Positions 20,525-47,753 of a stretch of DNA of 64,000 nucleotides are shown in pieces. Position numbers and translations under genes: made by a program. Each line of letters starts with the position of its first letter. Position 1 is the first letter of the stretch. Location: contig JAZDJS010000026.1 of assembly GCA_043803745.1 (NCBI GenBank), forward strand, positions 5,025 to 69,024, read 5' to 3'. The notes beneath the pieces were generated by a model. It was not told where the DNA came from and made no database searches. It worked only from the letters and a program-made list of their open reading frames with translations. This stretch comes from an archaeon (GTDB lineage: Archaea; SpSt-1190; DYHY01).

Positions 20525-21680
20525 AGCCCTTCAGACCTCCCTTTGATGCATCGTTCTCAGACTCGGAATTGACGAAGGAAATCCCCAGGGATTTCTCCAT
20601 CTTCTCCTTCCGCTTCTGCTCGAATATCTTCTCGCGCACAAGAACCTGGGAAGACTGGATTCCCGTCACAATGAGCAGGACCTTTATCGCTTCCTTCATG
20701 GAATCCTCAATCCGTGCGCCCCAGATTACCTTCGCGCCAACCTCGAGCTTGTCAGAGACGACCGAGACGATCTGGCGGGATTCCTCGAGCGTGAGGTCCG
20801 GTCCGCCAATGACATCGACAAGAGCCCCCTTCGCCCCGGTTATGTCAACGTCAAGCAGGGGATTGTTGACTGCGCGCTGGATCGCCTCTCCCGCGCGGTT
20901 GTCGGAATCGCTTTCCCCGAGACCTATCAGGGCGAGTCCCCCGCCGCGCATAACCGCCCGCACGTCGGCGAAATCAAGGTTGATAAGACCGGGCTTTGTG
21001 ATTAGCTCGGCGATCCCCTTGACTGCGTTGACGAGGATTTCGTCGGCGACCTTGAACGCCGTTGCAATCGGTATGTCGGGGACTATCTGCAGGAGCTTGT
21101 CGTTCGGGACAACTATCAGCGTGTCAACGGACGTCTCGAGCTTTGCAAGCCCGCTGCTTGCATTGTCCCACCTGTGCTTTCCCTCCATTTCGAAGGGAAG
21201 CGTCGCAATCCCGATAACGAGCGCGCCGAGCTTCTTCGCAACCTCGGCAACAACCGGCGCGCTGCCCGTCCCGGTTCCGCCACCGAGGCCGCATGCAACG
21301 AAAACGAGGTCCGAGCCGGAAAGGGCCTGCTTGATTTCGCTCTCATTCTCCCTTGCCGCGGCTTCGCCAACAGCCGGATCCGCGCCAGCCCCAAGCCCGG
21401 CAGTTGTTTCCTTGCCGATTAGCAGTTTCTTGTTCGCCTTTATTTTCATGAGGTCCTGGGCGTCCGTGTTGATGGCGATTATCTCAGCGCCTTCAATCCC
21501 TATTTCCATCATCCTGTCCGCGGAGTTTCCACCGGCGCCGCCGCATCCGACAACCTTGATAACCGCCCGGCTCCCGGAGAAATCGGTGCTATCGTTCTGG
21601 ATCGTCACACGCCCCTTCTGTTCTTCTGCACGCCCAATTGCCGATTGAATAAGTCCCTTCATCATTTCAGCCGTCTCCAC
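20490..21680 (-). CDS. ftsZ: cell division GTPase FtsZ
   Basis: Tubulin/FtsZ signature GGGTGTGSAPVVAE, the N-terminal IKVVGCGGAGGN P-loop-like segment and an FtsZ-type C-terminal tail. Confidence 0.9.
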   Translation of the reverse strand: METAEMMKGLIQSAIGRAEEQKGRVTIQNDSTDFSGSRAVIKVVGCGGAGGNSADRMMEIGIEGAEIIAINTDAQDLMKIKANKKLLIGKETTAGLGAGADPAVGEAAARENESEIKQALSGSDLVFVACGLGGGTGTGSAPVVAEVAKKLGALVIGIATLPFEMEGKHRWDNASSGLAKLETSVDTLIVVPNDKLLQIVPDIPIATAFKVADEILVNAVKGIAELITKPGLINLDFADVRAVMRGGGLALIGLGESDSDNRAGEAIQRAVNNPLLDVDITGAKGALVDVIGGPDLTLEESRQIVSVVSDKLEVGAKVIWGARIEDSMKEAIKVLLIVTGIQSSQVLVREKIFEQKRKEKMEKSLGISFVNSESENDASKGGLKGFGSEGKVKRLS

Positions 21681-31483: not shown

Positions 31484-31560
31484 ACTCAATCACTCAACTG
31501 AGTGATACCTCAACTGAGTGCTACTGTATTTAATGAATTGAGTGAGGCAAACCTTTAAAA
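31484..31560. promoter_or_regulatory. operator-like array of CACTCA/TGAGTG half-sites plus TATA-like box (CCTTTAAAAG, 31548-31557)
   Basis: CACTCAA occurs at 31484 and 31491. TCAACTGAGTG is a direct repeat at 31494 and 31510. CACTCA-N2-TGAGTG is an imperfect palindrome at 31491-31504, with the inverted copy TTGAGTGA at 31538. These are followed by an A/T box ~27 nt before the ATG at 31585. Confidence 0.4.
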
Positions 31561-31566
31561 GGGAGT

Positions 31567-31773
31567 TTGGCCAAAAAAGGGCCAATGCGGGCCAGCTTCG
31601 ACTACGAAGACGTAAAAATGCGCTCGGTTGACGAAATCCTCTTCAACTACAACCGGGACAAGCCGACTTCCCGCAGAATTTCGAAATCGGAGCTGCTCAG
31701 ACGGCTCCTGGACCTTGTGTCGAACGGAAAAATACCTCTGGAGAAGGTGGTCATAATTAATGAGAAGAGATAA
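31567..31773 (+). CDS. small hypothetical protein (possible regulator) preceding the giant surface-protein genes
   Basis: A 62-68-aa basic ORF (likely start at MRASF, 31585) overlapping the start of the giant gene by 14 nt. No family recognised. Confidence 0.3.
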   Translation: MAKKGPMRASFDYEDVKMRSVDEILFNYNRDKPTSRRISKSELLRRLLDLVSNGKIPLEKVVIINEKR

Positions 31774-34700
31774 CGCCCTCCTCGCCCTTTCGGTTTTCCT
31801 CTTCCTTTTCCTCTTCCTATTCACCGCCTCGTTCGCGGCCAGTCCGAGCTTTTCCCCGTATGTCACTCGGTCAGGCTTCAGCAATCCCTCGGTGCTTACG
31901 ACGAACCAGTCCGAGGTTTCAATGACAATCTGGACGGGAACGATTTCAGCAGATGCATTCATAACTAGTGTGGAAATAAACATTGCCGGACTGAACCCTG
32001 TCGAGGGGCAGGTACTTTCAGTCCCGGAGCCAACTTGCCCTTCGGGAATCTCAACCAGGAACATAATAAACGAGCAAACACTTCTCTGCTCAACGGGAAT
32101 GAGCGAATCCGGAATAGCGGGCGGAAGCAACGTCCCTATAACCCTTACGTTGAACCGCGTCAAGGATTCGGTCGGAACCAACCCCAACCAGATATCAATC
32201 AAGCTGGTCGATGAGCAACTTAACGAAACGACAATGCTGATTGATTTCACCATCCAGAACAAGCCGGCCCTCGCCTCTTCGGTCGCCGTCGGGTATCCCG
32301 CAACCGTCTCGAAGGGGCAGATCGGAGTTCCGGTAACTTTCAGGACGATAAACACCGCAAGTTCCCCGGCGGCAGCCGCAAACTCTGTTACACAGGATGC
32401 AGTGATACGGGATGCGGGAGGCGCGGCAATATCTGCAGTATCTTACACTCAGACCCCCTCCGGGGCAATAAGCCTTGGCTCCGGGCAGGAGGTCAACTTC
32501 ACATTCTACGTCGATGTTCCCGTCGGCGCAGCAGCGGGTTTGATGACACACTGGTTCAACCTTTCAGCAGTCGACCCGAACAGCGGGCGGGTTTTCACGT
32601 CGGCAACCGTCCAGAATTCGACAACAGTGCTCACTCCTCCGAACCTTAACGCAACACTCCTCCTCAACAACACCGCGTTCATCTCCAACATTTATCCGTA
32701 CAACACAGCCCTCCTTACTGTGCGGCTGAACAACACGGGCGAAGCGCGTGCGAACCTGACCGGAGCGAGCCTGGTCTTTCTGGATTCCAACGGACTTGAC
32801 AGGACCGCGAATTTCATTTACGCGAACACGACCCAGCTGAACGCCTCAATCCCGGCAAGCGCAACCACCGACATCTCATTCAACGTCACGGGAATAGGCA
32901 GCTGGGCCGGAGGGGCCGTTACGGTCAACTACACGGTTTATTACGTGGACGGAGGCAGCGGGCTTTCCTGCGGACCTTACAGGACAAACCACTCGAACGC
33001 ATTCACCTATGACACGGTCGCCCCTTTGGTGAACTTCCACAGCTATGACGGAAACACTTCAAATTACCGCGACACGCAGGATGGGACCGCCGCAATTGTC
33101 GTCAACGCAACCGACAGTTCCTCGGGGCTCACTCCAAGCGCGCTGGTTCTTTTCACCGCAAAGGACGGCTCAACAGTCAGGACAACTAACCTTTCCTGCT
33201 CCCCGCCATTGTGCAGCGGAACGGTCGACGTTGATGAGCTTTCCCTCGACATATACGGCGACACCCAGACGCGCGTTGTTGTCTCGGACGCGGTCGGAAA
33301 CAACGCAACCGCGACGGCGAGCGTCTTCTTCTACAACGTGCGCCTGTTTGCAAAAGACGGGTTCAACAACTATTACATTGAAGAACCCAACTTTACCAAT
33401 CCGGTATTCGCCCTTTTGAACATGACGAACGGAGAAAGGACGGCCTGCCTTGGGCAGCCTTTCGGCTCTTCCCTCTGCGCAGTGCCTTTCGGCACGGTCG
33501 TCAATGTTTCACTTTCCTCAGTTTCGCACGTTTGGAACCAGTCGGACGGCAACCGGACCCTCTGCATTGGGACCGGAACGACGACTTCTTGCAACAAGGC
33601 CTTTCCGTCATCCGCCCACATTAACGACACTATTTACCTCCTCCCGAACACGCTGATAACCCTTCAAAACGAGTTCGGAATTCCGGTCAAGGCATTCAAC
33701 GTAACGGTCCGCGATTCCCTCTCCTGGTTCGTCTACCTTTCCGACGGAGCCGTCGGCGACGAGAATTCCTCGGACGGCGCCTTGCTTTTCCCCTTCGACA
33801 CGGGCAAGCATCAGACGCCCTTCACAGCGGAGTTCAACGTTGCGCCCAACTACAACAACACGGGGCTTTCCTTCTGGACCCAGCAATTCACCCCCTCGAA
33901 CGCAACCCTTACCACGATTTCGAAAACGTCCAAATTCTCAGTTCTCTTCAACCTTCTTGACGAGTTCGGAAACGCAATTGACAGGACGGGGGGTTCGGCA
34001 GTATACAACCAACTGAACGAGTTCGGCTTCTCAGCCGTCGCCTGCGTAACGAACCCCGTTGACAACCACGTTTACGGCTGCAGGATTCCGACGGCTGCCG
34101 AGGTTGCGAATGCATCCTACCCCTCCCAGGGAGCGAGCTTTTCAGTTTCAAAGCCCGGCTATGTGGATTTTTCAACGGTGCGCGTAGTCCCTCCAACAAG
34201 CCCGGCATCGGCGCAGGTAAACGCGACCGCTCGCGCGAACTTCACGATCCTCATAATTCCGACGGATGCATGGAACGTCTCGACGATTGACGGGAATTCG
34301 ATCGATTCAGTCATCAGCGAATTCGCGGGAGCCTGCTACCGGAACGGGACGCAATCCCTCTGGGGCTGCCCCGCAACATCAAGCGACACATACGTGAACG
34401 TAACTCCTGTGAATTCAAGCGGATTCCTGAATCGCAGGATTCTCATCAACCCCTCCCAGGCCCAGCAGAAAACGAACTACTCGGCAAGCAACTACACTCT
34501 TGAGGTCAACGCATCCGAGGAGGTTTTCGGCGGACGGCTTCACAGCAACGACATTTCCCAGGTCCTGTTCAACGGCAGCATCAACTGCATCGGCAAGCCC
34601 GCGCCGGCGGACCACACCTGGGGCTGCCCCGTTCCAATAGGGACCGCCCTGTCCCCAGTATATGTCAACACATCCTCCCAGAGCGGGTATCTCAGCGCGA

Positions 34701-37672
34701 CGGCATATCCGAGCGGAGTGATAAGTTCGGTCCACGCAACCTCCCCGGCAACCGCGTCAAGCACGCACAATTACACCGTCAGAGTCAACACCACAAACCA
34801 GTTCGGAAGCACTGTCTCCTCCGCCGGAGGGAACGTCAGCGCATATCTTGCGAACACGACGAGAATCTCCTGCGTGAACACATCCCTTTCAGACTGGTTC
34901 TGCGCAGTGCCGGTCTCCACCGCAGCAACGGTAAGAACGACCCTTCAGGCGTACATTTCCGCAAACAATTCGCTGACGGCACCGGCGAATTCCGGGAACC
35001 AGTCAAGGATTTCGAGCGGAAACCTTTTCACGGCAGTCGTCTATACGCGGGACGAGCTCGGCAACTTTCCGGACCTCCGCACCGGCTCCGCGGTCAGCCT
35101 TGCCGGATATTCATGTGTCAACAATTCAGTTTCCGCATTCCTCTGGGGCTGCGCAGTTCCGTGGTCAACCTCGGGAAACGCGACAATTTCCGCCTCCGGG
35201 ATGATTTCCTGGAATTCCGGACCGTACATCACGAACTCGTATGACGGACCCCAGATCTCAGTCCAACCAACCCTGCAATACACCTTGCTTGTGAACCTGA
35301 CCGATCAGATAGGCAATGCCCTTTCGGGGGCGACAGTGACTGCGACCAATTCGGCGGTCAGCTGCTATTCAAACCTGAGCAGATACTACTGCCCCGTTTC
35401 CTCCGCCTCCTCCGCCGTGACGGCTTCGAAAGTCGGGTTTGTCAACAGGACGGTCACTACAGCCGGGATTTCCTCAGCAGGACCCCAGACGGTCCTCCAA
35501 ATGACATATGCCAATAATTCCGGATTGCCCTATTCCGCAAGCATCCGGGTTACCCGCGAAGTCAACAACAGCAACATTGAGATGTCCCAAGATGTCTCAT
35601 TCATCAACGCAACGAGCGGGGCGCAGGTCTTCCCGGCGGGAAACTCCTCAAACCCCTCAACCCCCAACATCTTCTATTTTGCATTCCCGGAAGGATCCCA
35701 GGAACTGTTCGTCCGGAAGGCGGGATATGTCGACAAGCAGGTCTACTTCACAACGAGCCAGGCAACGCCATATGACAACTCGAACACTTCGAACAGTTTC
35801 TCGCTTCGCATCTACCTTCATTCCGAAAGCGGCGCGGCAATAACGAGCGGCGCCGTCCTTTATCCCTACCAATACCACCAGGACGGCTCATACTATTATT
35901 TCGCAATCCCTTCCGGAACCGCAACGGTTTACGCCGGAAAGACGGGATATGTCAACAATTCCACAACGGTTTCAATAAACACAACCTATCCGCAGGGCCA
36001 AGTGCAGGCGCCGCTCAAGCTCCAATTCACGCTGAAGGTCGTTTCAGTTGATTGGGGCGGAGCTTCCCTGAACGGAACGACCGTCAACGTAACATATGCC
36101 GCCAACAGCTCGCTCCTTGCTTCACAGACCCTTTCCTCGTCCGAGAACACCGCCTATTTCGACCTTTCCCATACGACGCCGGCGATAATCGTTTCGGTTT
36201 CCAAGGCGAATTACAACACCGTCGGATTCGGCCCCACAGCGCTCTCCCAGTCGAGCCAGGCAAGCATGCAGTCGGCGCACGCCCAGAACATCATAGTCAA
36301 TCTGACTGATTGGGGCGGAGCCGCCCTAGGCAGCGCAACGGCAACCCTCTATCGGAACGACTTTTCAACCTCGAACAAAATAGCCAAATGCACAACCCTT
36401 CCCTCGGGACTGTGCACTTTCACCTCATACAACGGCGTGGCGGATCCCGACACAAGCAGTTTCAATTCATCCAGGGTTTCCCAGGGCGATTTGATAGTTG
36501 TTTCAGCGGACAAACCCGGATTCGGGCAGATACAGACCGCCGATGGCAGGTATTACTACCAGAATTCCTCGACGCCCCTTCCAGCGGGAACGTTCAAACT
36601 CGGAGCGAAAATAACCGTTTTCGCGAACCAGGCATGGGGCTCGGGGAACCCGATAGCCGGGGCAACGATCAGCCTCAAGAACACTTCGAACGTCCAGATT
36701 GCGAGCATCACAACCAATTCAACCGGCGGCGGGGCGTTCAGCCCCAACTATTACGCCTCCAACAGCCCGAGCGATTCGTCGATAGCTTCAGGGGAGCTCC
36801 AGAACCTTGCGAATTATGCCGCATATTTCTCAAAGCTCGGGTATTCCAACCAGACGAACGCATCGACTTTTAATTCCTCCCTGCCCAAAACCCTGACCTT
36901 CACCGGATATGACTCTGCTGCGCCGGTCTTCACGTTCTACTGGCCGGACGGCTCGGTTTATGACGGAATAGAAAGCTCGCCATACAACGGGAGCGCGATA
37001 GGGCTCGAGAACTTCACGGTGAACTTTTCAGTCTCAGACCCGTACGGGACTGACGGCTCGGGCGTTAACCTCAGCAACATCACGGTCGGGGTAATCAACT
37101 CGACGCAATCATTCCAACTCAAGACACTCAGCTGCCCTTCCGGAAGCTGTTCGACTTCATTCTCCGGAAAGGAATTCCCCGTCCAGAATCTCACCCTGAG
37201 GTTCGGCGCCCTTGACAATTTCGGGAATGGCAACACCTCAGATTCCCTCCTGATCTCAATACCCGCCGTGAACGTGACCGGAATCGGTTTCGTTAACGCA
37301 AGCGCGTATTCCAACGGTCTTGGCTACTGGAACTTTTCATTCAACCTCGCGCTCAAGGGGGCTTTCGCCCGCATGAAGCTTTCCGACTTTACGGGACTTG
37401 TCGGGGGATATGTCAACATAACCGACCCTTCCTGTGCCGAAAGCCATTGTGCGAACCTGTGGTACTACAACGCAACGAGCTGCGCCGCGGAGAGCGTCCC
37501 GGTCTACAACGAGTTCAACGCAACCGTCACACCCTACGCCTTCTGCGACAGGAACTTGACGACAACTTACCTGCGTGAGCAGACTGCCTTCCTCGTGATG
37601 ACCGTGCCGCCGGGCGCCCAGTCGGACAAATACAACGCAAGCTACGGGTTTGCGGGAGGGGGCTCTTCATAA
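31760..37672 (+). CDS. giant secreted cell-surface protein (1970 aa; S-layer/adhesin-like, heavily N-glycosylation-sequon-rich) with repeated Cys-pair modules
   Basis: An N-terminal signal/TM segment (LLALSVFLFLFLFLFTASFAASP), S/T/N-rich composition with dozens of N-x-S/T sequons, and at least six ~100-aa repeats each ending in C-x8-14-[WY]GCP (HVYGCRIP, SLWGCPATS, HTWGCPVPIG, DWFCAVPV, FLWGCAVPW, RYYCPVSS). It is paralogous to the next gene (shared LKYTLKVVS.DWGGA.LNGTT and HAQNII blocks). Confidence 0.75.
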   Translation: MRRDNALLALSVFLFLFLFLFTASFAASPSFSPYVTRSGFSNPSVLTTNQSEVSMTIWTGTISADAFITSVEINIAGLNPVEGQVLSVPEPTCPSGISTRNIINEQTLLCSTGMSESGIAGGSNVPITLTLNRVKDSVGTNPNQISIKLVDEQLNETTMLIDFTIQNKPALASSVAVGYPATVSKGQIGVPVTFRTINTASSPAAAANSVTQDAVIRDAGGAAISAVSYTQTPSGAISLGSGQEVNFTFYVDVPVGAAAGLMTHWFNLSAVDPNSGRVFTSATVQNSTTVLTPPNLNATLLLNNTAFISNIYPYNTALLTVRLNNTGEARANLTGASLVFLDSNGLDRTANFIYANTTQLNASIPASATTDISFNVTGIGSWAGGAVTVNYTVYYVDGGSGLSCGPYRTNHSNAFTYDTVAPLVNFHSYDGNTSNYRDTQDGTAAIVVNATDSSSGLTPSALVLFTAKDGSTVRTTNLSCSPPLCSGTVDVDELSLDIYGDTQTRVVVSDAVGNNATATASVFFYNVRLFAKDGFNNYYIEEPNFTNPVFALLNMTNGERTACLGQPFGSSLCAVPFGTVVNVSLSSVSHVWNQSDGNRTLCIGTGTTTSCNKAFPSSAHINDTIYLLPNTLITLQNEFGIPVKAFNVTVRDSLSWFVYLSDGAVGDENSSDGALLFPFDTGKHQTPFTAEFNVAPNYNNTGLSFWTQQFTPSNATLTTISKTSKFSVLFNLLDEFGNAIDRTGGSAVYNQLNEFGFSAVACVTNPVDNHVYGCRIPTAAEVANASYPSQGASFSVSKPGYVDFSTVRVVPPTSPASAQVNATARANFTILIIPTDAWNVSTIDGNSIDSVISEFAGACYRNGTQSLWGCPATSSDTYVNVTPVNSSGFLNRRILINPSQAQQKTNYSASNYTLEVNASEEVFGGRLHSNDISQVLFNGSINCIGKPAPADHTWGCPVPIGTALSPVYVNTSSQSGYLSATAYPSGVISSVHATSPATASSTHNYTVRVNTTNQFGSTVSSAGGNVSAYLANTTRISCVNTSLSDWFCAVPVSTAATVRTTLQAYISANNSLTAPANSGNQSRISSGNLFTAVVYTRDELGNFPDLRTGSAVSLAGYSCVNNSVSAFLWGCAVPWSTSGNATISASGMISWNSGPYITNSYDGPQISVQPTLQYTLLVNLTDQIGNALSGATVTATNSAVSCYSNLSRYYCPVSSASSAVTASKVGFVNRTVTTAGISSAGPQTVLQMTYANNSGLPYSASIRVTREVNNSNIEMSQDVSFINATSGAQVFPAGNSSNPSTPNIFYFAFPEGSQELFVRKAGYVDKQVYFTTSQATPYDNSNTSNSFSLRIYLHSESGAAITSGAVLYPYQYHQDGSYYYFAIPSGTATVYAGKTGYVNNSTTVSINTTYPQGQVQAPLKLQFTLKVVSVDWGGASLNGTTVNVTYAANSSLLASQTLSSSENTAYFDLSHTTPAIIVSVSKANYNTVGFGPTALSQSSQASMQSAHAQNIIVNLTDWGGAALGSATATLYRNDFSTSNKIAKCTTLPSGLCTFTSYNGVADPDTSSFNSSRVSQGDLIVVSADKPGFGQIQTADGRYYYQNSSTPLPAGTFKLGAKITVFANQAWGSGNPIAGATISLKNTSNVQIASITTNSTGGGAFSPNYYASNSPSDSSIASGELQNLANYAAYFSKLGYSNQTNASTFNSSLPKTLTFTGYDSAAPVFTFYWPDGSVYDGIESSPYNGSAIGLENFTVNFSVSDPYGTDGSGVNLSNITVGVINSTQSFQLKTLSCPSGSCSTSFSGKEFPVQNLTLRFGALDNFGNGNTSDSLLISIPAVNVTGIGFVNASAYSNGLGYWNFSFNLALKGAFARMKLSDFTGLVGGYVNITDPSCAESHCANLWYYNATSCAAESVPVYNEFNATVTPYAFCDRNLTTTYLREQTAFLVMTVPPGAQSDKYNASYGFAGGGSS

Positions 37673-40600
37673 TGGCGAACGGACGCGGAAAGCTCGCTGC
37701 CGCCTCGATCACGCTCCTCTACCTGGCGCTCTCACTCGCCTTTTCAATCCCGGTTTTCACGGCCGACCTGAGCCCCAATGCAGTCAGCACCGGGCAGAAC
37801 GTCTCTTTCACGCTCGTTGTTTCGAACACCGGGTCTGAGCTAATCGAGAACGTTTCAATCAGCATGAACCCGCTCAATTCCGAGGGCAAGATAACCTCCG
37901 CCGACTGCGACGCCTCAAGGTTCTCGGGGTCAATAATAACCGGGACAAACCTCAACCTCCTGATATGCCTGCGTCAGGGGTCAAGCGGGATAAGTACCGG
38001 GCAGTCTGCGACAATCCGCTTCAATTTCTCAGCAGCGCCCCTTTCCAAACCAATCCCGAACCCGGTCACAATCTCGATCTATGCATACAACACGACCCAG
38101 GAATCTGATTTCCGGACTGACGGAGTCGAATTCGAGAACGCCGCTTCCCTCTCAACAACACTTTCCTCGCCGCTTCCCTCCAGAATTATTGCGGGACAGA
38201 CCGGAATCTTCGCCAATTTCACCGTGATAAACAACGGGGATGCCACCGCAAGCACGGTCACTCCCGCCGCCTCAATAGGCGCGCCCTACGGCTCAATAAC
38301 CCCGACAGTAATACCGGCGCCGCAGAACATACTGGGCGGGGGCTCCCGCACCTTCGAGGCGAGGTTTGACTTGCCCTCCGGAGCCGCTTCAAGCTCCCTC
38401 ACCTTGAATTTCAACGCAACCGGAACGGATGTGAACAGCCTCCTCAATACCACAACGCAAGCAAGCTCGACAGCAACGGTTTACCTCCAGCCAAACCTCC
38501 AGATATACTCAATAACCCCGAACATCACCTTCGCTTCCGCGAATCCCGGCTACCGGACGGTCAGGCTTTCGGTTCTCGCCGGCGTGCTTGGTTCGGCTGC
38601 AACGATATCTGAAGCGAACATCACCGGGTTCTCGCTGAAAATAGTTTCCGGGAGCGGGGTTGATGAAAGCTCAAGCTATACCTCTCCGCTAAGAACCGAC
38701 TCGGTCGTAAGCATTGCAGCAGGGACCAACGCAACGCTGACCTTCGAGCTTTCGATCAACAACCCCGGCGAGGGGCAGAAATATGCAAACGTTTCGCTCA
38801 ACTACAACGACGGGATCGCAGGAATCTCCCCGAACCAAACGGCGCTCAACAACGGGACAATCTTCGCGGTTGACAACACGAACCCGACAATCAACATAGT
38901 CTCGGCAACCTCGGATTCGGGCGCGGGGTTCTTCAGGCAGGGCGAGACGATAACGGTAAGCTCGACGGTCACGGACGCCCTTTCAGGAATAGGCTCTCCG
39001 AGCTGCTCGGTTTCCATCGGAGGAATAAGCGCCGGAACCCTCAGCTTTACCTCGAACTCCTGCAACGGAACCGTGCAGATACCGCAGGACTCTTCGATCT
39101 ACGGAAGCGAAATCCTCTCAATATCGACCTCCGACGCCGTCGGCAATCTTGGGACGGGAACACTGACAGTGCAAATCTACACCCTTGCCGTAAACACAAC
39201 CGACATTCTGACGGGAGCGGACATAAAGGACGGGTCAGACCTTTCCAACGCAACAGTTTACGCCACCAACTCATCGGGAGGGCAGACCTTCTCGTGCACG
39301 CCACTTTACGGGACAAAGACCCACCTTTGCGGGGTCCCTCTCGGAACCGTTGTCAACATCTCCGCAACCTCCCCGGCATACGTTCGCAGCAATAACACGA
39401 CGGATTCCTCCAGGATTTGCGTCGGAACCGGAACCCTTTCCTCCTGCGCGGGAGCGCTCCCTTCCGGGGGATTTGCGCAGATAACAATATCCCTCACGCC
39501 AAACACAAAGATAACCGTCCTCAACGAGTTCAACCGGACGATCCTTTACGGCAACGTCACTGTCGGGGATTCTGCGGCAACCCCGTGGTACAAATCATTC
39601 ATGGACGGCGGCGCATATGACCACAACACGACAATCAACGGCATAATTGTCGCGCCAATTGACACCGGAAAGCACACGAGCCCGTTCCAGGTAAGGTTCA
39701 ATCTGGACGCCTCGATGAACCCCGGATATCTTGCCGCGACAAATTCGAACTACGTCCCGTCGCAGGAAAATCAGACCAACCTGACTATAACCGCGAGGTT
39801 CACAATATTTGTCCGGCTTTTCACGGAATTCGGGGCCCCGCTGAACACAACGACCGGAACGGTTTCATTCAGCCACTCGAGCGGAACATTCCCCTGCATC
39901 CAGAATCCGGCGAACTACTCGGAATACGGCTGTCTTGTGCCGACCCTTACCGAGAACCCGGGGCTTTCCTCCGGCGGGAACATAACGATAACCAAGCCCG
40001 GATATGTGACCAAGCGAATACAAGGGGCTGTCCCTCCGGCAAACCCCAGCGCAGCCCAGGTTCAGGCGTCAGAATTGCTCCAGTTCGACCTTGCGGTAAG
40101 GGTCACCGACGAGTTCGGCCTGGCAAACCTTACAACGTCCGAGGTCTCAAGAGTTTCCCTTATTTCGAGCAATTGCACGTACGGGAGCGGCGGCTTCTGG
40201 GGCTGCCCGGCGGTTTCCGGCGACGAAATCGGAATAACCGTGGAGCCGCTTTCATCGAGCGGATATCTCGTGAAGACAAGCCAGATAATCCCGTTCGTCG
40301 ATTATGTCCAGTCTTCCGTCGTAATCCCCCTGAAATACTCCCTGAAAATATTCGCAAGGGACGAGCTTGGGAACTATCTCAACGCAACGAACATTTCCGA
40401 GATAAAGTTCCTTTTCGGTTCCGGAGTATCCTGCACGAGGAACGGGAACACTTCGGAATGGGGCTGCCCCGTTTCGGCGGGAACCGCAGCAGCCCCGGTC
40501 CACGTTAACGCATCCTCTTCGAGCGGACGCCTGAACTACGTCATAGCAGCCCAGGCGATTCCCGCAAACACCTCAGAGTCCCAGCTCGTGAATTATTCGG

Positions 40601-43600
40601 CGAACAACTTCACGATACGGGTCCTGCCGGCTTCGGAGATGGGAACTGAACTTCCGCTTTCGGGCCTTTACGTCAGCTGGGGCGGGCAGAACGCATGCAT
40701 CCAGTCCGGCTCATACTGGTATTGCCCGGCGAACGCAAGCATTGCAACGAACGTTTCATCTGGCGCTGTCGGATTCATAAACTACCTGAACTCCTCGGTC
40801 AATTCCCCCGCGCTTTCCGGAAGCCAGCTGCTTGTGACAACCGCCAACAAATATTCCATCCTTGTCAACACGCTTGACGAGTTCGGCACGCCAAGGAACT
40901 TTTCATCCGGAAGGGTCTCGTTTGGAAGCGTTTCCTGCGTTTCTTCGGCGGGAAGGCCCTACGAATGGGGCTGCCCCTCGCCAGCCGGAACGCTTTCCCA
41001 GGCGAACGTTTCCCATCCCGGATATATCAACTTCACAAGTCCGGCTTCCTATACCGCCCCGGAGCAAACCGCGGCACAGGTCGTGATTAACTCCGCCAAC
41101 AAATTCACGCTCAGGGCGAACATCTACGACGAGCTTGGACAGGAGCTCCCTTCCGCGCAAGTTTCGTCCGGTTCGGTAGACTGCTATTTGATTGGCGGCC
41201 AGCCGGTCAACAGCTATTTCTGCCCCCTTGTTCCGCCCCAGGCAAGCCTCACAATTTCGAAAACCGGCTTCGTTTCCTCGACAGTGCAAATCTCCAGCCT
41301 CAACTACACCGAACAGCAGGTAATCACAATCAACAGCTCATCGACAAGCCCGAAGTATTCTGCCGTCCTGACAATCCGGAGGTCGCCCTCAAGCAACGAC
41401 GAAACGGAAATGACCAGCGCGACGTTCTTCAATCTCACCAATTCAGCGTCAATCCCATATTCGCAGAGAGTCCAGAACAGATATTATTTCGCCCTTGCCG
41501 AAGGGAGCGCTTCCTTGATTATACGGCACCAGAGCACCTACGTTGACAGGGCCTACAACTTCACAACCTCTTCCGTTGCCCAGCACGTTGGGGAGCCGGT
41601 TCTGGATTATCCGCTCAAGGCAATAGTTATTGCCGAGGATGGCGCCGGGATAGAGGGAGCGACCCTTGCCCTGAACGTTTCCGGAACTTTCATCGAGTCG
41701 AACACAATTTCCGAATACTATTCCTCCCTTGCCAACGGCGCTTATTCCGTATATGCCTCAAAAGTCGGATTCGTAACGTCCTCTCCCCAGGCGTTCAGCA
41801 TAAACACGACATATCCCGCCAACCAGACAACGGTCCAGGTTTCTCTCAAATACACCCTCAAGGTCGTTTCGAACGACTGGGGGGGCGCGCCCCTGAACGG
41901 GACGACAATTTCGGTTACGGGCCAAAGCATCCTGACCAATCCGGAGTCCTTGAACACCGCGTATTTCCCGGTCAATCCCGCGACAAGCCCGGTGGTCAAC
42001 GTCACCGTTTCGAAGACAGGCTACAACACCGTTGCGTTCGTTTCGGTGCCAATTTCCGCATCTTCGCAGAACGTGACAACGACAAGCCACGCCCAGAATA
42101 TAATTGCCCAGGTGCAGAATTGGGCGGGCAGCCCCCTTTCGGATGCCGTCCTCCGGCTCCACTCCAACGGAGCGGAGGTCGCCGACTGCGTCACGACCGC
42201 GAGCGGAACGTGCACTTTCGTTTCGACAAACGGAATCTCCACAACCGGGAACTTCAACTCCTCAGAGATGCCCCCCGGAGCAAGCGTAAGCTTTTCAGCT
42301 GAAAAACCGGACTATTGGAACGCACGTTCCGGCAATTACACCTATGCTGCGCAGAATTCGTCGCCCCCCCAAAGCCTTGGCGCGCTGAGGATAGGAATAC
42401 CTCCGAAGGTTCTTGTTGTGAAGGGCTGGAACACCAGCCTGCCTGTCGATGATGCGGCGGTCGTCCTCAATGCGGGCTCAACCCAAATCTCCTCAAACTC
42501 AACGGATTCCGGCGGATATGCGATCTTCCTCCCCAATTATTCCGCAGCTTCGTCGGGATCCGACTTCTTCATTTCCGGCGCCGAAGCGTCGTCCGGCGCG
42601 AACCTTTCCGCCCAGGGGTCGAAAACCGGATATTCTGGGAACATCACGAGCTTCAGTTTCAGCCCCGACACGAACTCAACAATCGTTCTCGTGCTTTCCG
42701 ACAGCGTTCCGCCCCAGCTCGAGCTGAACCTTTCCGGACGGGACGGCACCGCCTTCGTGGGCTTTGAGAACTTCAACGTCTCCCTCTTCTCCGACGAGCT
42801 TTATCCGCAGGATTCGTCAGGAGTGAACTATTCCGGCTCAAGCTACAGGATTTCCTGGGCGAACGGCACTATTGCCAGGGGCTCGGCGAGCCTGTCCTCC
42901 TGCTCCGGATACTGGTGCAACCTGACCGAGATAAACGGCTGGGACCTTCCGGTCGGCAGCCTTTATGTTGTCGTCAACGTCACGGACGGGCAGGGCAACT
43001 GGAATTCGACAAACATCTCCTTCGTCTCGGCTCCGGGCCTTAACGAAACGTTCGTCACAATTGAGAAAAGCACCGCTTCCTCGGCAGGAGACGACTTCTT
43101 CCTCGTGACATGGGGCCTCGTTGTCAAGGGAACCCAAGGGAAGCTGCGCGCCTCAAACCTCTATCCGGTGAACTGCTCAAGTTCGTGCGCGGAATTCCCG
43201 ATTCAAGGATGGGCAAATCTCGTTTATACGGATGTCGCAAGCTGCTACGGAACGGCGAGATATTCCGTTGTCAAGAACACGTTCCCGGCAGGGCAGACGC
43301 CCGCAACATTCTGCGACTATGATTTCTCGACCCAGTATGCCCGGGAACAGAACGTTTCCCTGAAGATTATTGTGCCGACCGGGCTTGCCAATGCAAGATA
43401 TAACGCGAGCTACTATTGGACCGCCCTGCAGCAGGACCTTCCAAGAGCGAACGTTTCGGTGAGTTCGGTAACCTCGTCCAATTCAAGCCCCGAAACCGGG
43501 ACGAACTTCACCGTGACGGTCCGGGTTTACGATGATGCGAACGGCGGGACTGCGGACGACATACTTGTTTCGCTGAACTCGACAATCGGCTCCGTTGTTT

Positions 43601-44988
43601 ATCCGGCGAACCAGACGATTTCCCAGATTTACAGCGGCCAGTACGGGGAAGCGAACTTCACCGTAATGGGCTCGCCTACAACGCTTGGAACCGAAACCCT
43701 TACGGCGAGGATTCACTCCGGTCTTGACGCGAACTCCGGATGGCCAGCGACAATCTCGGTTGCGACGGCAAGCACGGCGGTTGTCATCGTAGACCTGACG
43801 GCGCCCTTCGTAATCCAGGGAACAAGCCCGCTCAGCAACTACAACTACTCTTCCCCGACAGTCCAATTCGACACTTTCGCTTTCGACAACTTCCGCTTGA
43901 ACTACACTGCCGTCTACGGCAACTGGTCCGGCGGCTGGGGCGCGAAATCTCTGAACTCGACCCCGCTCAACAACACCTGGTGGAACCAGACAATCGCGAT
44001 TTCTGATGGAATCTATCTCTGGGGTCTCTTTGCAAATGACACCTCGGGCAACTGGAACCTGACTGCCAACAGAACCTTCACAGTCGACACTGTCGCACCT
44101 TCTTCAGTAATTTCAGCTCCAGTGAACACAACCAACACGACAGATTCAACCCCGACAATCACAGGAACCGCCTCTGACGCGACCTCCGGAGTGAGAAGGG
44201 TCTGGCTCAGCTCAGACGGTTCGACCTGGAACCTTGCGACGGGAACGACCGCCTGGACCTACACTTTCGGCACCCTGTCAGAAGGAATCCACGTTATCGA
44301 ATCAAAAGCTGAAGACTGGGCAGGGAACAACCAGTCAGCCTTCGGAGAAGTCTACATAACAATCGACACGGTTGCGCCCTTCGTAATCCAGGGAACCAAC
44401 CCGCTTGACACCTTCAACTCCTCTTTAGCATCGGTTACTTTCGATCTCATGGGAATTGACAATCTCTTCCTGCATTCGCTTGCCGTCTACGGCAACTGGT
44501 CCGGCGGCTGGGGCGCGAAATCTCTGAACTCGACCCCGCTCAACAACACCTGGTGGAACTCGACTCTTTCCCTCCCCGACGGCTACTTTGTCTGGGGCGC
44601 ATATGCGAACGATTCCTCCGGAAACGGCAACTTTTCCTCAGCCAACAGGACGCTTTTGGTTGACACGACCGCGCCTTCGTATGGCGCCTCGCTCGGCCAG
44701 AACACGACTGAGATAAACGTTTCCCTCGGCGAGGTTGCGCTCCTGTACTCGTACTGGTCTGATGCGCTTGCCGGACTTGCCGGCTCAATCCTCTCAACGA
44801 ACGAGACCGGCGCGTTCGCAAACTACACGTCAATTGCCCTTTCCGGAAGCGGAGCCTGGTCCAACTTCACCTGGACGAACACGACAGCTCTTGCGAATGG
44901 CACGGCTGTCGCCTGGAGAATCTGGGCGAACGACACCCTAGGGAACTGGAACTTGACAACTGAAACGATAATAACAGTGATAACTTAA
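37672..44988 (+). CDS. giant secreted cell-surface protein (2438 aa) with DUF11/CARDB-like N-terminal domains, seven Cys-pair repeat modules and duplicated C-terminal Ig/PKD-like domains
   Basis: A signal peptide, the same C-x-[WY]GCP repeat module (FWGCPAVSG, EWGCPVSAG, YWYCPANAS, EWGCPSPAG, SYFCPLVPP and others), a CARDB-like N-terminus (NVSFTLVVSNTGSELIENVSISMNP), and two near-identical ~190-aa C-terminal segments each containing AVYGNWSGGWGAKSLNSTPLNNTWWN. There is no C-terminal TM anchor. Confidence 0.75.
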   Translation: MANGRGKLAAASITLLYLALSLAFSIPVFTADLSPNAVSTGQNVSFTLVVSNTGSELIENVSISMNPLNSEGKITSADCDASRFSGSIITGTNLNLLICLRQGSSGISTGQSATIRFNFSAAPLSKPIPNPVTISIYAYNTTQESDFRTDGVEFENAASLSTTLSSPLPSRIIAGQTGIFANFTVINNGDATASTVTPAASIGAPYGSITPTVIPAPQNILGGGSRTFEARFDLPSGAASSSLTLNFNATGTDVNSLLNTTTQASSTATVYLQPNLQIYSITPNITFASANPGYRTVRLSVLAGVLGSAATISEANITGFSLKIVSGSGVDESSSYTSPLRTDSVVSIAAGTNATLTFELSINNPGEGQKYANVSLNYNDGIAGISPNQTALNNGTIFAVDNTNPTINIVSATSDSGAGFFRQGETITVSSTVTDALSGIGSPSCSVSIGGISAGTLSFTSNSCNGTVQIPQDSSIYGSEILSISTSDAVGNLGTGTLTVQIYTLAVNTTDILTGADIKDGSDLSNATVYATNSSGGQTFSCTPLYGTKTHLCGVPLGTVVNISATSPAYVRSNNTTDSSRICVGTGTLSSCAGALPSGGFAQITISLTPNTKITVLNEFNRTILYGNVTVGDSAATPWYKSFMDGGAYDHNTTINGIIVAPIDTGKHTSPFQVRFNLDASMNPGYLAATNSNYVPSQENQTNLTITARFTIFVRLFTEFGAPLNTTTGTVSFSHSSGTFPCIQNPANYSEYGCLVPTLTENPGLSSGGNITITKPGYVTKRIQGAVPPANPSAAQVQASELLQFDLAVRVTDEFGLANLTTSEVSRVSLISSNCTYGSGGFWGCPAVSGDEIGITVEPLSSSGYLVKTSQIIPFVDYVQSSVVIPLKYSLKIFARDELGNYLNATNISEIKFLFGSGVSCTRNGNTSEWGCPVSAGTAAAPVHVNASSSSGRLNYVIAAQAIPANTSESQLVNYSANNFTIRVLPASEMGTELPLSGLYVSWGGQNACIQSGSYWYCPANASIATNVSSGAVGFINYLNSSVNSPALSGSQLLVTTANKYSILVNTLDEFGTPRNFSSGRVSFGSVSCVSSAGRPYEWGCPSPAGTLSQANVSHPGYINFTSPASYTAPEQTAAQVVINSANKFTLRANIYDELGQELPSAQVSSGSVDCYLIGGQPVNSYFCPLVPPQASLTISKTGFVSSTVQISSLNYTEQQVITINSSSTSPKYSAVLTIRRSPSSNDETEMTSATFFNLTNSASIPYSQRVQNRYYFALAEGSASLIIRHQSTYVDRAYNFTTSSVAQHVGEPVLDYPLKAIVIAEDGAGIEGATLALNVSGTFIESNTISEYYSSLANGAYSVYASKVGFVTSSPQAFSINTTYPANQTTVQVSLKYTLKVVSNDWGGAPLNGTTISVTGQSILTNPESLNTAYFPVNPATSPVVNVTVSKTGYNTVAFVSVPISASSQNVTTTSHAQNIIAQVQNWAGSPLSDAVLRLHSNGAEVADCVTTASGTCTFVSTNGISTTGNFNSSEMPPGASVSFSAEKPDYWNARSGNYTYAAQNSSPPQSLGALRIGIPPKVLVVKGWNTSLPVDDAAVVLNAGSTQISSNSTDSGGYAIFLPNYSAASSGSDFFISGAEASSGANLSAQGSKTGYSGNITSFSFSPDTNSTIVLVLSDSVPPQLELNLSGRDGTAFVGFENFNVSLFSDELYPQDSSGVNYSGSSYRISWANGTIARGSASLSSCSGYWCNLTEINGWDLPVGSLYVVVNVTDGQGNWNSTNISFVSAPGLNETFVTIEKSTASSAGDDFFLVTWGLVVKGTQGKLRASNLYPVNCSSSCAEFPIQGWANLVYTDVASCYGTARYSVVKNTFPAGQTPATFCDYDFSTQYAREQNVSLKIIVPTGLANARYNASYYWTALQQDLPRANVSVSSVTSSNSSPETGTNFTVTVRVYDDANGGTADDILVSLNSTIGSVVYPANQTISQIYSGQYGEANFTVMGSPTTLGTETLTARIHSGLDANSGWPATISVATASTAVVIVDLTAPFVIQGTSPLSNYNYSSPTVQFDTFAFDNFRLNYTAVYGNWSGGWGAKSLNSTPLNNTWWNQTIAISDGIYLWGLFANDTSGNWNLTANRTFTVDTVAPSSVISAPVNTTNTTDSTPTITGTASDATSGVRRVWLSSDGSTWNLATGTTAWTYTFGTLSEGIHVIESKAEDWAGNNQSAFGEVYITIDTVAPFVIQGTNPLDTFNSSLASVTFDLMGIDNLFLHSLAVYGNWSGGWGAKSLNSTPLNNTWWNSTLSLPDGYFVWGAYANDSSGNGNFSSANRTLLVDTTAPSYGASLGQNTTEINVSLGEVALLYSYWSDALAGLAGSILSTNETGAFANYTSIALSGSGAWSNFTWTNTTALANGTAVAWRIWANDTLGNWNLTTETIITVIT
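43908..44559. repeat. intragenic direct duplication: 78-nt perfect repeat (43908-43987 and 44482-44559) within a ~575-nt tandemly duplicated domain
   Basis: The exact string gccgtctacggcaactggtccggcggctggggcgcgaaatctctgaactcgaccccgctcaacaacacctggtggaac occurs twice. The flanking protein segments (TAPFVIQGT.PL...VDT.AP) are also duplicated with divergence. Confidence 0.85.
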
Positions 44989-45004: not shown

Positions 45005-46714
45005 ATGGAAAAGAGGGAAATGGGGATTAAGATTGCCGCGGCAGGGATTCTTGCAATTCTCCTGCTTGTTGCGCTCCCCCTCGTCCTCGCGGACACGCCC
45101 TTCCCGGGATATTTCGAGGTGATTCCCTCCTGCCTTTCGACTCTCACCTGCGGTCAGGGACCGAACATAACAGTCAATGGAACGGGGATAGTCAACCTCC
45201 TTGCCGCTCCAGCCAACGGCGCTGCCGACGGGCTTGTCACCGGAGTTCCAGTCAACGTGACCTGGGAAACCACGACGGACGGCTCAAGCCCTTACCCGAT
45301 GAATTCCTCAGTCTGGAGAGCCAACTCATCAGGACATTTCCTTCTCGGGAGCAACGCAACTGTTTCTGCAAGCCACAGGGTGCAGATAGGGCCCTTCGAA
45401 TATTCCGAGGCATACTGCCCCTCGGCAGGCTGCGAGATTCGCCTCGTCGTTTCCAGCTGCAACGCAACGAGCGGAATGTGCATAAACTCCTCGGCTGACA
45501 ACTCAACATTCTCAATTGTCGTAGCGCCGTCCCTCTACAATTTCTCCTACCTGCCGGCAAGCCCGAAGACAGGGGATCTCGTAACGCTCAGCTGGAACAC
45601 ATATTCGGCAATGAACCATTCGGCGACCTGGACCGGCGGTTCCGCGGCAAACGCAAGCTATCTGACGGGGCATTCCGTCCAGGCAGGCTATTTCAACTAT
45701 TCCGAAAATCCGGTCTTCTCAATCAGGTCCTGCTCCTCGGGAAGCCAGTGCGAGCTGAAGAACCAGCAGGTCAACATAAGCCTAAGCACTGCCGGACTTG
45801 CCCTCTCGTCAACTTCGCCGAGCACGGCAATCACCGCAAGCTGGACAACCCACAACTCATCGAACGGCACACTCTTCTTCTCGGTTAACGGAGGCGCAGT
45901 GCAGAACTCAACCGACGGCAGCTTTTCAACGGGCCATTCGGCAGCTTTGGGAAGCTTCGCAGCAGGGGATTCCATAACCTACTATGCCCGGAGCTGCCTC
46001 CTTCCGAACAACTGCGAGACAACCGCGAACGCGACAGCGACAATCTCGGCAACTTTGACGACAACAATCCCGCCAGCAACTACGACAGTTTCCACCGGCG
46101 GAGGGGGAAGCGGCGGATTCTTCGGGGGGACGGTCACGACAATACCCGCAGTTGCAATTCCCGCGGGCTCAGAATACGCCTATAGGGCCCTCCCTGCCGG
46201 GCTTCCGGCAAGCTTCGCAGTCAACGGCACGTCCCAGGCAATAATCCTCGTCACTTTCACGCACAGCCAATATGTTCCCAACGCGACAATCGTTCTTCAG
46301 CGGGTGCTTTCATTCTCCGGAACACGCCCCCCGGGAGCCGTTTACCAGTATGTCAACCTCACCCACTATTACGTCGACGAGTCGAAATTGGTTCTCCCCG
46401 TCAAGATAGAATTCAGAGTGTCCAAGCAATGGGTCGCTGACAGCAACATTGACCGCGCGACAATTTCCCTCTACCGGCTGTCCGGAGGAAGCTGGCAGGC
46501 TCTCGAAACGGTCCATTCGGGGGAAGACGCCCAATACTACTACTTCAAGTCGAATTCTCCGGGGCTTTCCCTTTTCGCAATAACCGGGCTTTCAAGGACC
46601 GCTTTCTGGGATCTCATAAACCTAATCGAGGTCTATTACGCGGGAGACCCCTCGGTGGACTTTTGGAAGGTCCTTGATGCCCTGACCGCATATTACTCTT
46701 CGGGAGGAAACTGA
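45005..46714 (+). CDS. secreted S/T-rich protein with C-terminal PGF-pre-PGF-like domain (no PGF-CTERM)
   Basis: A signal peptide (AAAGILAILLLVALPLVLA) and sequon-rich repeats. The C-terminal block VKIEFRVSKQWVADSNIDRATISLYRLSGGSWQALETVHSGEDAQYYYFKSNSPGLSLFAITG matches the PGF-pre-PGF domain pattern, but it is followed by a hydrophilic tail rather than a PGF-CTERM anchor. Confidence 0.55.
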   Translation: MEKREMGIKIAAAGILAILLLVALPLVLADTPFPGYFEVIPSCLSTLTCGQGPNITVNGTGIVNLLAAPANGAADGLVTGVPVNVTWETTTDGSSPYPMNSSVWRANSSGHFLLGSNATVSASHRVQIGPFEYSEAYCPSAGCEIRLVVSSCNATSGMCINSSADNSTFSIVVAPSLYNFSYLPASPKTGDLVTLSWNTYSAMNHSATWTGGSAANASYLTGHSVQAGYFNYSENPVFSIRSCSSGSQCELKNQQVNISLSTAGLALSSTSPSTAITASWTTHNSSNGTLFFSVNGGAVQNSTDGSFSTGHSAALGSFAAGDSITYYARSCLLPNNCETTANATATISATLTTTIPPATTTVSTGGGGSGGFFGGTVTTIPAVAIPAGSEYAYRALPAGLPASFAVNGTSQAIILVTFTHSQYVPNATIVLQRVLSFSGTRPPGAVYQYVNLTHYYVDESKLVLPVKIEFRVSKQWVADSNIDRATISLYRLSGGSWQALETVHSGEDAQYYYFKSNSPGLSLFAITGLSRTAFWDLINLIEVYYAGDPSVDFWKVLDALTAYYSSGGN

Positions 46715-46715: not shown

Positions 46716-47753
46716 ATGAAGATGAGAAAACGACATGCAAGCTACCAGCATCTTGCCGCGGCAATCATTTTCCTTCTTGCGCTGGTGGTCGGTGTCGCAT
46801 CCGCAGCAACGAGCGTTTCCTTCGAATTCACAGGTCCCGATGGGATCCTTCCCGGAAAAACCGGCGCCTACCGCGCGACAATCTCGCCAAACGAGGCAGT
46901 TTCGGGATTCGACTTGGCGGTCCTTGTGCCTTCCGGATGGAGCATAGATTCCTGGTCCGCTTCCGGATATTCCCGCAGCGCAATAACGCTCGACACGCGA
47001 AGCAGGTCCTACAGGGGGTTGCCTTATACGGCATACCACTGGAAATTCGCGAACGCCCTTTCCGCCGGGGAGAACATTTCATTCTCGTTGAACGTCAAAG
47101 TTCCGGAAACCGAAGCTATTGGGACCCGGAAGGAAATCTCCGCAATCTGGACCAACCCGAGCGGATTCGGCACAGAGAACAGGAACGTCAGCATCGCAAG
47201 CGCCTCAATTCTGTGCGGCGACGGCGCCTGCTCGTCAGGGGAAACTTGTTCAACCTGCCCGAAGGACTGCGGAGTCTGCTGGACGCCAGTATGCGGCGAC
47301 GGCGCCTGCTCCCCCGGAGAAGTCTCCTGCCAGGCCGACTGCGGGAATGGAAACACTCCGGTTAACACACCGACGACGGCAGGAAACTCAGGAAGCATCT
47401 TCGGAACCTTCGAAGGCAGCAGGAATTATCTGCTCTACGGAGGCTTGATTGTCCTTGTGCTTGCCCTGATAATGGTCGCGATATATGTTGTCAGGAAGGT
47501 TTCCGGGAGGCCGCGGGCGTTGGAACCGAGCCAGCCAATCCCCCTCGAGGAATACAATCGCGCCCAGGAGGCGGGCTCGCCCCTGCGCGACCAGGTTTCC
47601 GGGCGCTTTGACGTAAGACCGGTGAACCGGCAGCTTGAGAGGGCAACCGTCACGCCAAGGGAAATCGACACGACCGAGAAGAAAATCGTCCTTCTGAAAA
47701 AGGCAATGATGCGGATAAACAAGGTAATGGACGACCTTGGGAAAAACCTTTGA
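46716..47753 (+). CDS. type I membrane protein with Ig-like ectodomain and duplicated Cys-rich CGDGACS motifs
   Basis: A signal peptide, a beta-rich domain, two copies of CGDGACS.GE..C..DCG, a single TM (LLYGGLIVLVLALIMVAIYVV) and a cytoplasmic tail. The start is 2 nt after the previous gene. Confidence 0.5.
   Translation: MKMRKRHASYQHLAAAIIFLLALVVGVASAATSVSFEFTGPDGILPGKTGAYRATISPNEAVSGFDLAVLVPSGWSIDSWSASGYSRSAITLDTRSRSYRGLPYTAYHWKFANALSAGENISFSLNVKVPETEAIGTRKEISAIWTNPSGFGTENRNVSIASASILCGDGACSSGETCSTCPKDCGVCWTPVCGDGACSPGEVSCQADCGNGNTPVNTPTTAGNSGSIFGTFEGSRNYLLYGGLIVLVLALIMVAIYVVRKVSGRPRALEPSQPIPLEEYNRAQEAGSPLRDQVSGRFDVRPVNRQLERATVTPREIDTTEKKIVLLKKAMMRINKVMDDLGKNL

Follow-up and report, generated by a model that had tools for sequence, protein, structure and literature searches.

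The 64,000-nucleotide (nt) stretch of archaeal DNA analysed here (positions 5,025 to 69,024 of contig JAZDJS010000026.1, assembly GCA_043803745.1; hereafter the window) carries two adjacent giant open reading frames (ORFs) on its forward strand, ORF A (31760–37672; 1970 amino acids (aa)) and ORF B (37672–44988; 2438 aa), the stop codon of the former and the start codon of the latter sharing one base within TAATG. An earlier sequence-only reading of the window had called the same pair, with the same coordinates and lengths. A and B encode collinear paralogues, with 31% identity over ~2000 aligned positions, each of which appears to be a giant exported chain of beta-sandwich domains; B has an additional ~500 aa at its C-terminus, forming an immunoglobulin (Ig)-like extension. 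The central feature of both is a tandem array of modules marked by a pair of Cys residues, and it is the identity of this module, and the role of the proteins built from it, that is considered below.

Both proteins begin with a charged stretch followed by a hydrophobic, signal-like segment. In A this is the sole transmembrane-like segment, and B has one more, borderline, at aa 2026–2048, which is read as a beta strand and not as a transmembrane helix. Ser, Thr and Asn together account for 32–33% of the residues of A and B, and N-x-S/T sequons are ~2.3 times commoner than composition predicts, with 87 in A against 38.2 ± 5.1 in composition-matched shuffles (z 9.7), and 109 in B against 45.5 ± 5.9 (z 10.8). 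The corresponding values for 11 neighbouring, mostly cytoplasmic proteins lie around zero (−1.2 to 1.8). The description of the two proteins as secreted, rich in Ser, Thr and Asn, and laden with sequons is thus upheld, and A and B are probably exported, N-glycosylated surface proteins. Such N-termini and sequon enrichment fit surface-layer (S-layer) proteins, and would equally be expected of any archaeal surface protein.

Six consecutive Cys-paired modules of 80–102 aa are found in each protein, making 12 clear modules. In A, the array delimited by profile hidden Markov model (HMM) and alignment lies at 33926–35536 (+; aa 723–1259), with Cys pairs at residues 762/774, 859/870, 943/956, 1038/1048, 1119/1131 and 1202/1211; in B, it lies at 39790–41361 (+; aa 707–1230), with pairs at 742/754, 835/845, 921/932, 1009/1018, 1089/1101 and 1171/1184. 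Upstream of each array is a degenerate Cys-paired copy, m0. That of A (33341–33625, +; aa 528–622; C563/C573) is matched to the Cys-module profile by hhalign at 84% and contains an additional Cys pair, C602/C611, and that of B (39178–39402, +; aa 503–577; C542/C553) is detected by HMM (E-value 3.2e-5). Downstream, each protein has a further Cys pair with shorter spacing, at 1544/1552 in A and 1506/1514 in B. As these degenerate copies and downstream pairs come on top of the 12 clear modules, the initial count of at least 13 was fair. The motif originally given, C-x8-14-[WY]GCP, was right as to the Cys pair and needs adjusting elsewhere: the spacing runs from x8 to x12, WGCP in its strict form is present in five of the 12 modules only, and the general form of the second half is [WY][GFY]C[PALR].

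An HMM built from the six modules of A alone recovers all six modules of B, with 17.7–41.4 bits, whereas 200 shuffled versions of B gave no domain score above 6.1 bits; the repeat is therefore not an artefact of composition. Neither Cys varies in any of the 36 modules of A, B and four full or partial orthologues. Modules within one protein share 15–30% identity, and no repeats among them were found at the DNA level, and hence no sign of recent amplification, which together indicate that the modules are old. Positional orthology between the two arrays is weak, with 29% identity on the diagonal of the A–B module comparison, compared to 23% off it.

Insight into the fold came from an AlphaFold model of one B module (aa 1058–1141), which is all-beta, with a predicted local distance difference test (pLDDT) score of 84.6. 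In a Foldseek comparison with the PDB, the highest TM-scores were obtained with carboxypeptidase D transthyretin-like domains, namely 5aq0 (TM-score 0.65, root-mean-square deviation (rmsd) 2.7, 81 columns) and 1qmu (0.63), with the domains of carboxypeptidase M (0.61) and carboxypeptidase N (0.54) also present, along with the teneurin carboxypeptidase-like domain and SusC NTE. The profile evidence points the same way. CarboxypepD_reg (PF13620) is matched below threshold in 16 of 54 diverse modules of the family (best E-value 2.1e-5), with every other Pfam family matched in at most two, and in two of the 24 modules also searched (best E-value 8.8e-4); the whole A and B proteins reach 17.6 and 16.8 bits against this model, the gathering cut-off of which is 32.3 bits. 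In addition, the family consensus, ..V.v.DelG.pL.gatV....C....YYCpVP.g...v.v.KdGYV, follows what we take to be the CarboxypepD_reg strand pattern. The module is therefore predicted to have a transthyretin-like fold of ~80 residues, and PF13620 is its nearest specific family, though with scores below the gathering cut-off.

From the structural match to carboxypeptidase D and the recurrent PF13620 matches, we conclude that the module belongs to the transthyretin-like/CarboxypepD_reg clan as a divergent member, forming an unmodelled Cys-stapled subfamily and not a new fold. A fold or domain unrelated to any known family would be in keeping with the lack of significant sequence matches in Pfam, NCBIfam and the PDB (the latter searched with the module profile). 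Literature searches on the proteins turned up no description of this Cys-paired module. An unrelated domain is nonetheless very unlikely, given that the model superposes on the carboxypeptidase D domains over the whole module (TM-scores 0.63–0.65, rmsd 2.7), that CarboxypepD_reg is matched so much more often than anything else, and that the consensus presumably retains the strand pattern of that family. The proposal that the repeat was not a recognised domain thus survives insofar as no curated model matches at its cut-off, and falls insofar as the fold is a known, transthyretin-like one. Big, PKD and CARDB, which had been named as families to which the repeat might belong, were not matched in the 24 or the 54 modules at E-values up to 10, TIG alone appearing in two of the 54. 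An identity with any of these three is consequently rejected for the Cys module, Big_13-type matches being confined to the C-terminal extension of B.

The distribution of the Cys pair was assessed across the family. When the module profile was run against 1.84 billion representative proteins (E-value up to 1e-3), 93 were retrieved, some with 20–25 copies, and 485 modules were extracted from them: 378 have both Cys, 68 have neither, and five have one. With A/B orthologues excluded, this co-occurrence has a Fisher p of 8e-70, a value uncorrected for shared ancestry. In the model of B 1058–1141, C32 and C44 are situated on adjacent strands of one hairpin (residues ~30–34 and 41–46). Presence of both Cys or of neither is to be expected where the two form an intradomain disulfide, and, judged from the alignments and the model, the Cys pair most likely forms such a bond. 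The suggestion of a beta-sandwich with a linked Cys pair is in this way borne out by the all-beta model, by the 378/68/5 split, and by the location of the Cys on the two arms of a hairpin.

The pair might instead be incidental, or serve metal binding or inter-chain cross-linking, a notion to which a possibly reducing habitat would lend some colour. It is scarcely credible, since incidental Cys are hard to square with the 378:68:5 pattern, two thiols that the alignments show unaccompanied by any conserved His, Asp or further Cys would make a poor metal site, and the two positions fall on neighbouring hairpin strands. The Cys pair is a hallmark of the subfamily. The sequence-only reading had itself considered that the repeats could prove to be a known family with an incidental Cys pair. 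A known fold and clan is indeed what they have, but the Cys pair defines the family.

The array continues into copies that lack the Cys pair or carry it with shorter spacing. In A these are modules m7–m11 (35537–36859, +; aa 1260–1700), which include a LQFTLKVVSVDWGGASLNGTT block and the pair C1544/C1552. Compared with the Cys-module profile by hhalign, m8 (1343–1420), m9 (1421–1508) and m7 (1260–1342) gave 94%, 63% and, for a partial alignment, 52%, and control regions (Ig-like, N-terminal and C-terminal) gave less than 1%; a weak PF13620 match is also present at aa 1628–1657. In the Cys-less modules an aromatic YYYFAIP.G hairpin replaces the Cys hairpin. These neighbouring modules are, on profile comparison, homologous to the Cys modules. 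This has a bearing on two blocks shared by A and B that were previously taken to be non-repeat. Both exist, but LKYTLKVVS.DWGGA.LNGTT makes up the opening strand of a module copy without Cys (hhalign 63%; HMM E-value 2.3e-6 for B 1392–1477), and is therefore not truly non-repeat.

The other block, T..FCD....T.Y.REQ, lies within a separate C-terminal beta-sandwich domain with four Cys, at 37217–37669 (+; aa 1820–1970) in A and 42994–43431 (+; aa 1775–1920) in B. This domain is common to A, B and the protein P0011, and also forms the C-termini of P0020 (1216–1343) and P0088 (939–1058), two module-bearing proteins presumed to be bacterial, and the two domain types thus travel jointly across proteins. 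Its AlphaFold model (pLDDT 81.4) has no informative neighbour among PDB structures, with TM-scores of at most 0.51. Beyond it, B alone has four Ig-like, Big_13-type domains (43792–44985, +; aa 2041–2438), recognised by jackhmmer and by weak Big_13 and Glucodextran_B matches. This Ig-like array includes a 573-nt tandem duplication (43801–44058 and 44374–44631, +; 76–85% nt identity), the copies of which encode the identical peptide YGNWSGGWGAKSLNSTPLNNTWWN; with 3, 4 or 6 such C-terminal domains in the B orthologues, copy number is variable. At the other end, two of the N-terminal beta-sandwich domains are mutually related, and in B this region gives only weak DUF11/DUF7507-type matches. Together, these features suggest that A would be composed, in order, of a signal-like N-terminus, about four N-terminal beta-sandwiches, an Ig-like domain, ~10–13 transthyretin-like modules, a second Ig-like domain and the four-Cys domain.

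A and B belong to a tight cluster in the order small ORF-A-B-C-D, with overlaps or gaps of no more than 16 nt at its gene junctions. ORF C (45005–46714, +; 569 aa) has a signal-like N-terminus, a sequon z of 6.0, and a PGF-pre-PGF domain at aa 394–528 (TIGR04213; 88.2 bits against a cut-off of 28 bits, E-value 5.2e-25). PGF-pre-PGF domains are typical of archaeal envelope proteins and are usually followed by a PGF-CTERM sorting signal; ORF C, although it matches TIGR04213, is without PGF-CTERM, its last ~40 aa forming a non-hydrophobic tail. No description of PGF-pre-PGF function was found in the literature. Between aa 60 and 340, C has three ~90-aa repeats, each closed by SC-x5-C, plus two further Cys pairs, and all ten Cys are kept in its orthologue at the related locus L002. 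By their sequence, these repeats are a second, different type of putatively Cys-stapled module in the cluster. ORF D (46716–47753, +; 345 aa) is predicted to comprise a signal-like N-terminus, a beta-rich ectodomain, a transmembrane helix at aa 235–265 and a ~80-aa charged tail. Among the cluster products, it is the only one with a transmembrane helix beyond the N-terminal signal-like segment. Between ectodomain and helix, ten Cys are packed into 45 residues (aa 166–210; CGDGACSSGETCSTCPKDCGVCWTPVCGDGACSPGEVSCQADCG, with CGDGAC...CP.DCG), which looks like a small knot-like repeat, and a weak ‘choice-of-anchor V’ match is present at aa 29–81.

The first gene of the cluster encodes 62 aa (MRASFDYEDVKMRSVDEILFNYNRDKPTSRRISKSELLRRLLDLV...; 31585–31773, +) and overlaps the start of A by 14 nt. 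Its product has 80–88% aa identity in the loci L001 and L084, with 20–26 synonymous and 5–7 non-synonymous codon differences. This preponderance of synonymous changes indicates that the small ORF is a real gene, conserved far beyond A. It matched nothing in Pfam or among PDB chains, and a scan of metagenomes added one contig only, from the metagenome of L002. By eye the product looks ribbon-helix-helix-like, and it is possible that it is a small regulator or an operon leader protein. About 24 nt 5' of the small ORF, a TATA-like box, TTTAAAAG (31554–31561, +), is conserved in three orthologous loci and constitutes a putative promoter; upstream of it are conserved repeats of the CTCAATCACTCAAYTGAG type (CTCAAYTGAG-type; ~31484–31520).

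Relatives of the whole proteins are few. In a 5.8-billion-protein index, A and B each retrieved themselves and one orthologue of ~52% identity; a further A/B pair, at 38–44% identity, is encoded in GCA_020723935.1 (L084), and a search of genome contigs with B gave no relative. Synteny is kept as A-B-C-D-TFB in L002/L003, and as transglutaminase-GTPase-MFS-Maf-small ORF-A-B-C-D in L084. Between the window and L002, identity is 97.7% for TFB, 55% for B, 66% for C and 47% for D, and the fast divergence of the giants relative to TFB is typical of exposed proteins. GC content, GC content at third codon positions (GC3) and effective number of codons (Nc) are the same for A–D as for neighbouring genes, so there is no compositional sign of recent transfer.

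The module itself is more widely spread. An alignment of 54 modules gave no match in the 5.8-billion-protein index, probably owing to a limit of its word index. Among the 93 proteins retrieved by the profile, one has Big_1/invasin domains and is encoded on a 3.17-Mb contig; another has Big_5 and lies beside a two-component system, a weak PG_binding_1 match and T2SSE; P0020 also has Big_5; and a further member has a PG_binding_1 domain. Some further members are sequon-rich and archaeal-looking. On this context, the module family also occurs in bacterial giant surface proteins, and its presence in giants with bacterial-type domains or neighbours fits a generic role in extracellular stalks.

The reading that we consider probable is that A and B are paralogous giant surface proteins whose core is a disulfide-stapled transthyretin-like rod, with ORF D the likeliest means of anchoring. 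Both would be exported by the Sec pathway and heavily N-glycosylated on the surface of an uncultured, deep-branching archaeon, having no membrane anchor of their own. Each would consist of more than 20 beta-sandwich domains strung together linearly, with a central rod of ~10–13 transthyretin-like modules of the prealbumin/CarboxypepD_reg clan, of which seven or eight per protein may be stapled by a hairpin disulfide. By analogy with the isopeptide bonds of CnaB-type stalks, the staple may rigidify each module and protect it from unfolding and proteolysis. Retention at the cell would most likely be provided by the membrane protein D, and perhaps by C; as A and B have no anchor, and D is the sole product with a transmembrane helix, D is the likeliest anchor of the assembly.

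Several observations weigh against this picture. Any interaction of A/B with D or with C is deduced from gene order. The cut-offs of Pfam and NCBIfam models are not attained by the whole A and B proteins, by 24 modules or by other family members, and the Foldseek E-values are weak (~1e-2), a cohesin X-module and an usher C-domain being listed as well. In A, m10 and m11 gave less than 4% against the Cys-module profile by hhalign, so that the count of 10–13 modules is approximate. A and B do not stand out in codon bias within the window (Nc 46–48), and this likeness to the neighbours makes the measure uninformative on expression. Lastly, the radical-SAM and B12-binding genes of the window suggest an anaerobic host, and in reducing habitats extracellular disulfides would be less secure.

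Two other roles have to be set beside a stapled rod retained by D. In one, A and B are lattice-forming S-layer proteins, making up a two-component canopy held by D in the manner of SlaA/SlaB. The paralogue pair is kept at a syntenic locus beside housekeeping genes in all recovered lineage contigs with the locus (three besides the window), and this conserved core-genome position of two ancient paralogues favours a structural role in the envelope; A and B are also exported, sequon-rich and anchor-less, with membrane-anchored D in the same cluster, C has a domain type common in archaeal envelope proteins, and the giants evolve fast relative to TFB. A lattice is however unlikely. Neither protein matched any PDB chain sequence by phmmer at E-values up to 1, a set presumed to include solved archaeal S-layer proteins, and no S-layer family is found among the Pfam/NCBIfam matches of A and B. 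With over 20 domains in an unbranched series of 2000–2400 aa and a tandem stalk-type core, each protein also resembles a fibre more than a lattice subunit, the relatives of the module are found in proteins that look like fibrillar adhesins and have domains or neighbours of bacterial type, and codon bias is not elevated.

That resemblance leads to the other role, in which A and B are fibrillar adhesins, each with a long stalk and a binding head at its N-terminus, that attach to a substrate or to the cell of a partner or host instead of building a general envelope layer. The architecture would suit this, with N-terminal non-stalk beta-sandwiches (the weak DUF11/DUF7507-type matches) followed by stapled stalk modules and Ig-like arrays, as would the variable number of C-terminal Ig copies among orthologues (3, 4, 6), the fast divergence, the occurrence of the same module in surface giants with bacterial-type domains, and the precedent, in PMC12617251, of cross-linked stalks in fibrillar adhesins of archaea. 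Against it, neither A nor B shows a recognisable adhesive or lectin domain or a cell-anchoring motif, and the strict conservation of two ancient paralogues together with C and D in a core-genome position would be unusual for accessory adhesins, so that an adhesin is to be regarded as a tentative possibility. A broader version of the stapled-rod reading, according to which the cluster encodes the complete outer envelope of the deep-branching lineage (S-layer or fibre coat), with stapled modules shared with bacterial giants and the 62-aa protein as controller, is doubtful.

Comparison with characterised systems helps to place the module. CarboxypepD_reg domains (PF13620; 5aq0, 1qmu) are beta-sandwiches of the same type, 80–90 aa long and tandem in extracellular proteins, and have strands in common with the module at both ends, V.V.D..G.pL.ga.V at the N-terminus and k.GY at the C-terminus. 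In the module, a covarying C-x8-12-[WY][GYF]C[PA] replaces the aromatic G.Y.f..lp.G hairpin, and, unlike CarboxypepD_reg domains, the modules form a family of their own that can be recovered by HMM, none of them scoring at the gathering cut-off. CnaB stalk domains (Cna, SdrD B repeats, pilins) are likewise transthyretin-like, arranged in tandem stalks and stabilised by an intradomain covalent bond (PMC12617251), a likeness in the working of the module, but that bond is a Lys–Asn/Asp isopeptide and not a putative hairpin disulfide, and the archaeal host here has no sortase or LPXTG anchor. Cna_B was not matched in Pfam searches of the whole proteins or of the 24 or 54 modules, in which the conserved candidates for a covalent bond are the two Cys.

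At the level of whole proteins, archaeal S-layers (SlaA/SlaB, Nitrosopumilus, Haloferax csg) are exported, N-glycosylated and built from multiple beta-sandwiches, properties predicted for A and B from their sequence; A and B differ from S-layer proteins in being much longer and in having a tandem stalk-type repeat core. SlaA and SlaB, an anchor-less large subunit and its membrane-anchored partner, are encoded adjacent to one another. The NOMO1 rods of the BOS complex also consist of many consecutive CarboxypepD_reg-like beta-sandwiches, and two of the 54 modules weakly match the NOMO1-like PF22902. However, NOMO1 is a eukaryotic protein of the endoplasmic reticulum lumen without the Cys-staple motif, and its homology to the modules is seen at clan level only.

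What emerges is a small, cross-domain family of modules for extracellular stalks, with 93 representative proteins among 1.84 billion, in which a covarying Cys pair on a transthyretin-like scaffold would be the disulfide counterpart of the isopeptide staple in CnaB stalks. Turned into a model of the Pfam kind, the family would annotate regions that the curated models tried here leave blank in the giant surface proteins of uncultured archaea and, on context, of bacteria. For the lineage concerned, the locus, with its two ancient paralogues, PGF-pre-PGF protein and membrane anchor candidate, is the main candidate envelope or adhesion locus. This amounts to neither a new mechanism nor a new fold, and its use lies in annotation and in the cell biology of the lineage.

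The window is archaeal DNA, as TFB, Trm1 and ABCE1 are encoded in it. The sequence-only reading had framed the proteins as thaumarchaeal, which was not supported. ABCE1 is 76% identical to that of an unclassified metagenome-assembled genome (JBBIPP01), 42% to Nitrosopumilaceae, and at most 51% to all other lineages listed (Hadarchaeota, Thermoplasmata, Archaeoglobi, DPANN groups), and a canonical FtsZ is encoded at 20490–21680 (−), where Cdv-type division would be expected of a thaumarchaeon. On these two grounds a thaumarchaeal origin was rejected, though the window also encodes a eukaryote-type topoisomerase IB (8663–10387, +; Topoisom_I_N, Topoisom_I and Topo_C_assoc, E-values down to 1.9e-62). 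Topoisomerase IB is described as a thaumarchaeal hallmark in a reference cited in PMC8185306. A thaumarchaeal host is thus not demonstrable, though the topoisomerase would fit one.

Elsewhere in the window, radical-SAM proteins are encoded at 2732–4135 (+), 52145–53458 (−) and 55512–57131 (−), two of them with B12-binding domains, and in L002 a further B12-binding radical-SAM gene adjoins TFB. Four ORFs, at 4142–5179 and 5182–7374 (+), and at 22937–24259 and 53523–55472 (−), encode proteins of 345, 730, 440 and 649 aa, respectively, without a Pfam match at E-values up to 0.01. Upstream of the cluster, at 26686–28743 (−) and in a syntenic position that is kept in L084, is a gene for a protein of 685 aa with a transglutaminase core; enzymes of this kind can cross-link or process proteins of the envelope.

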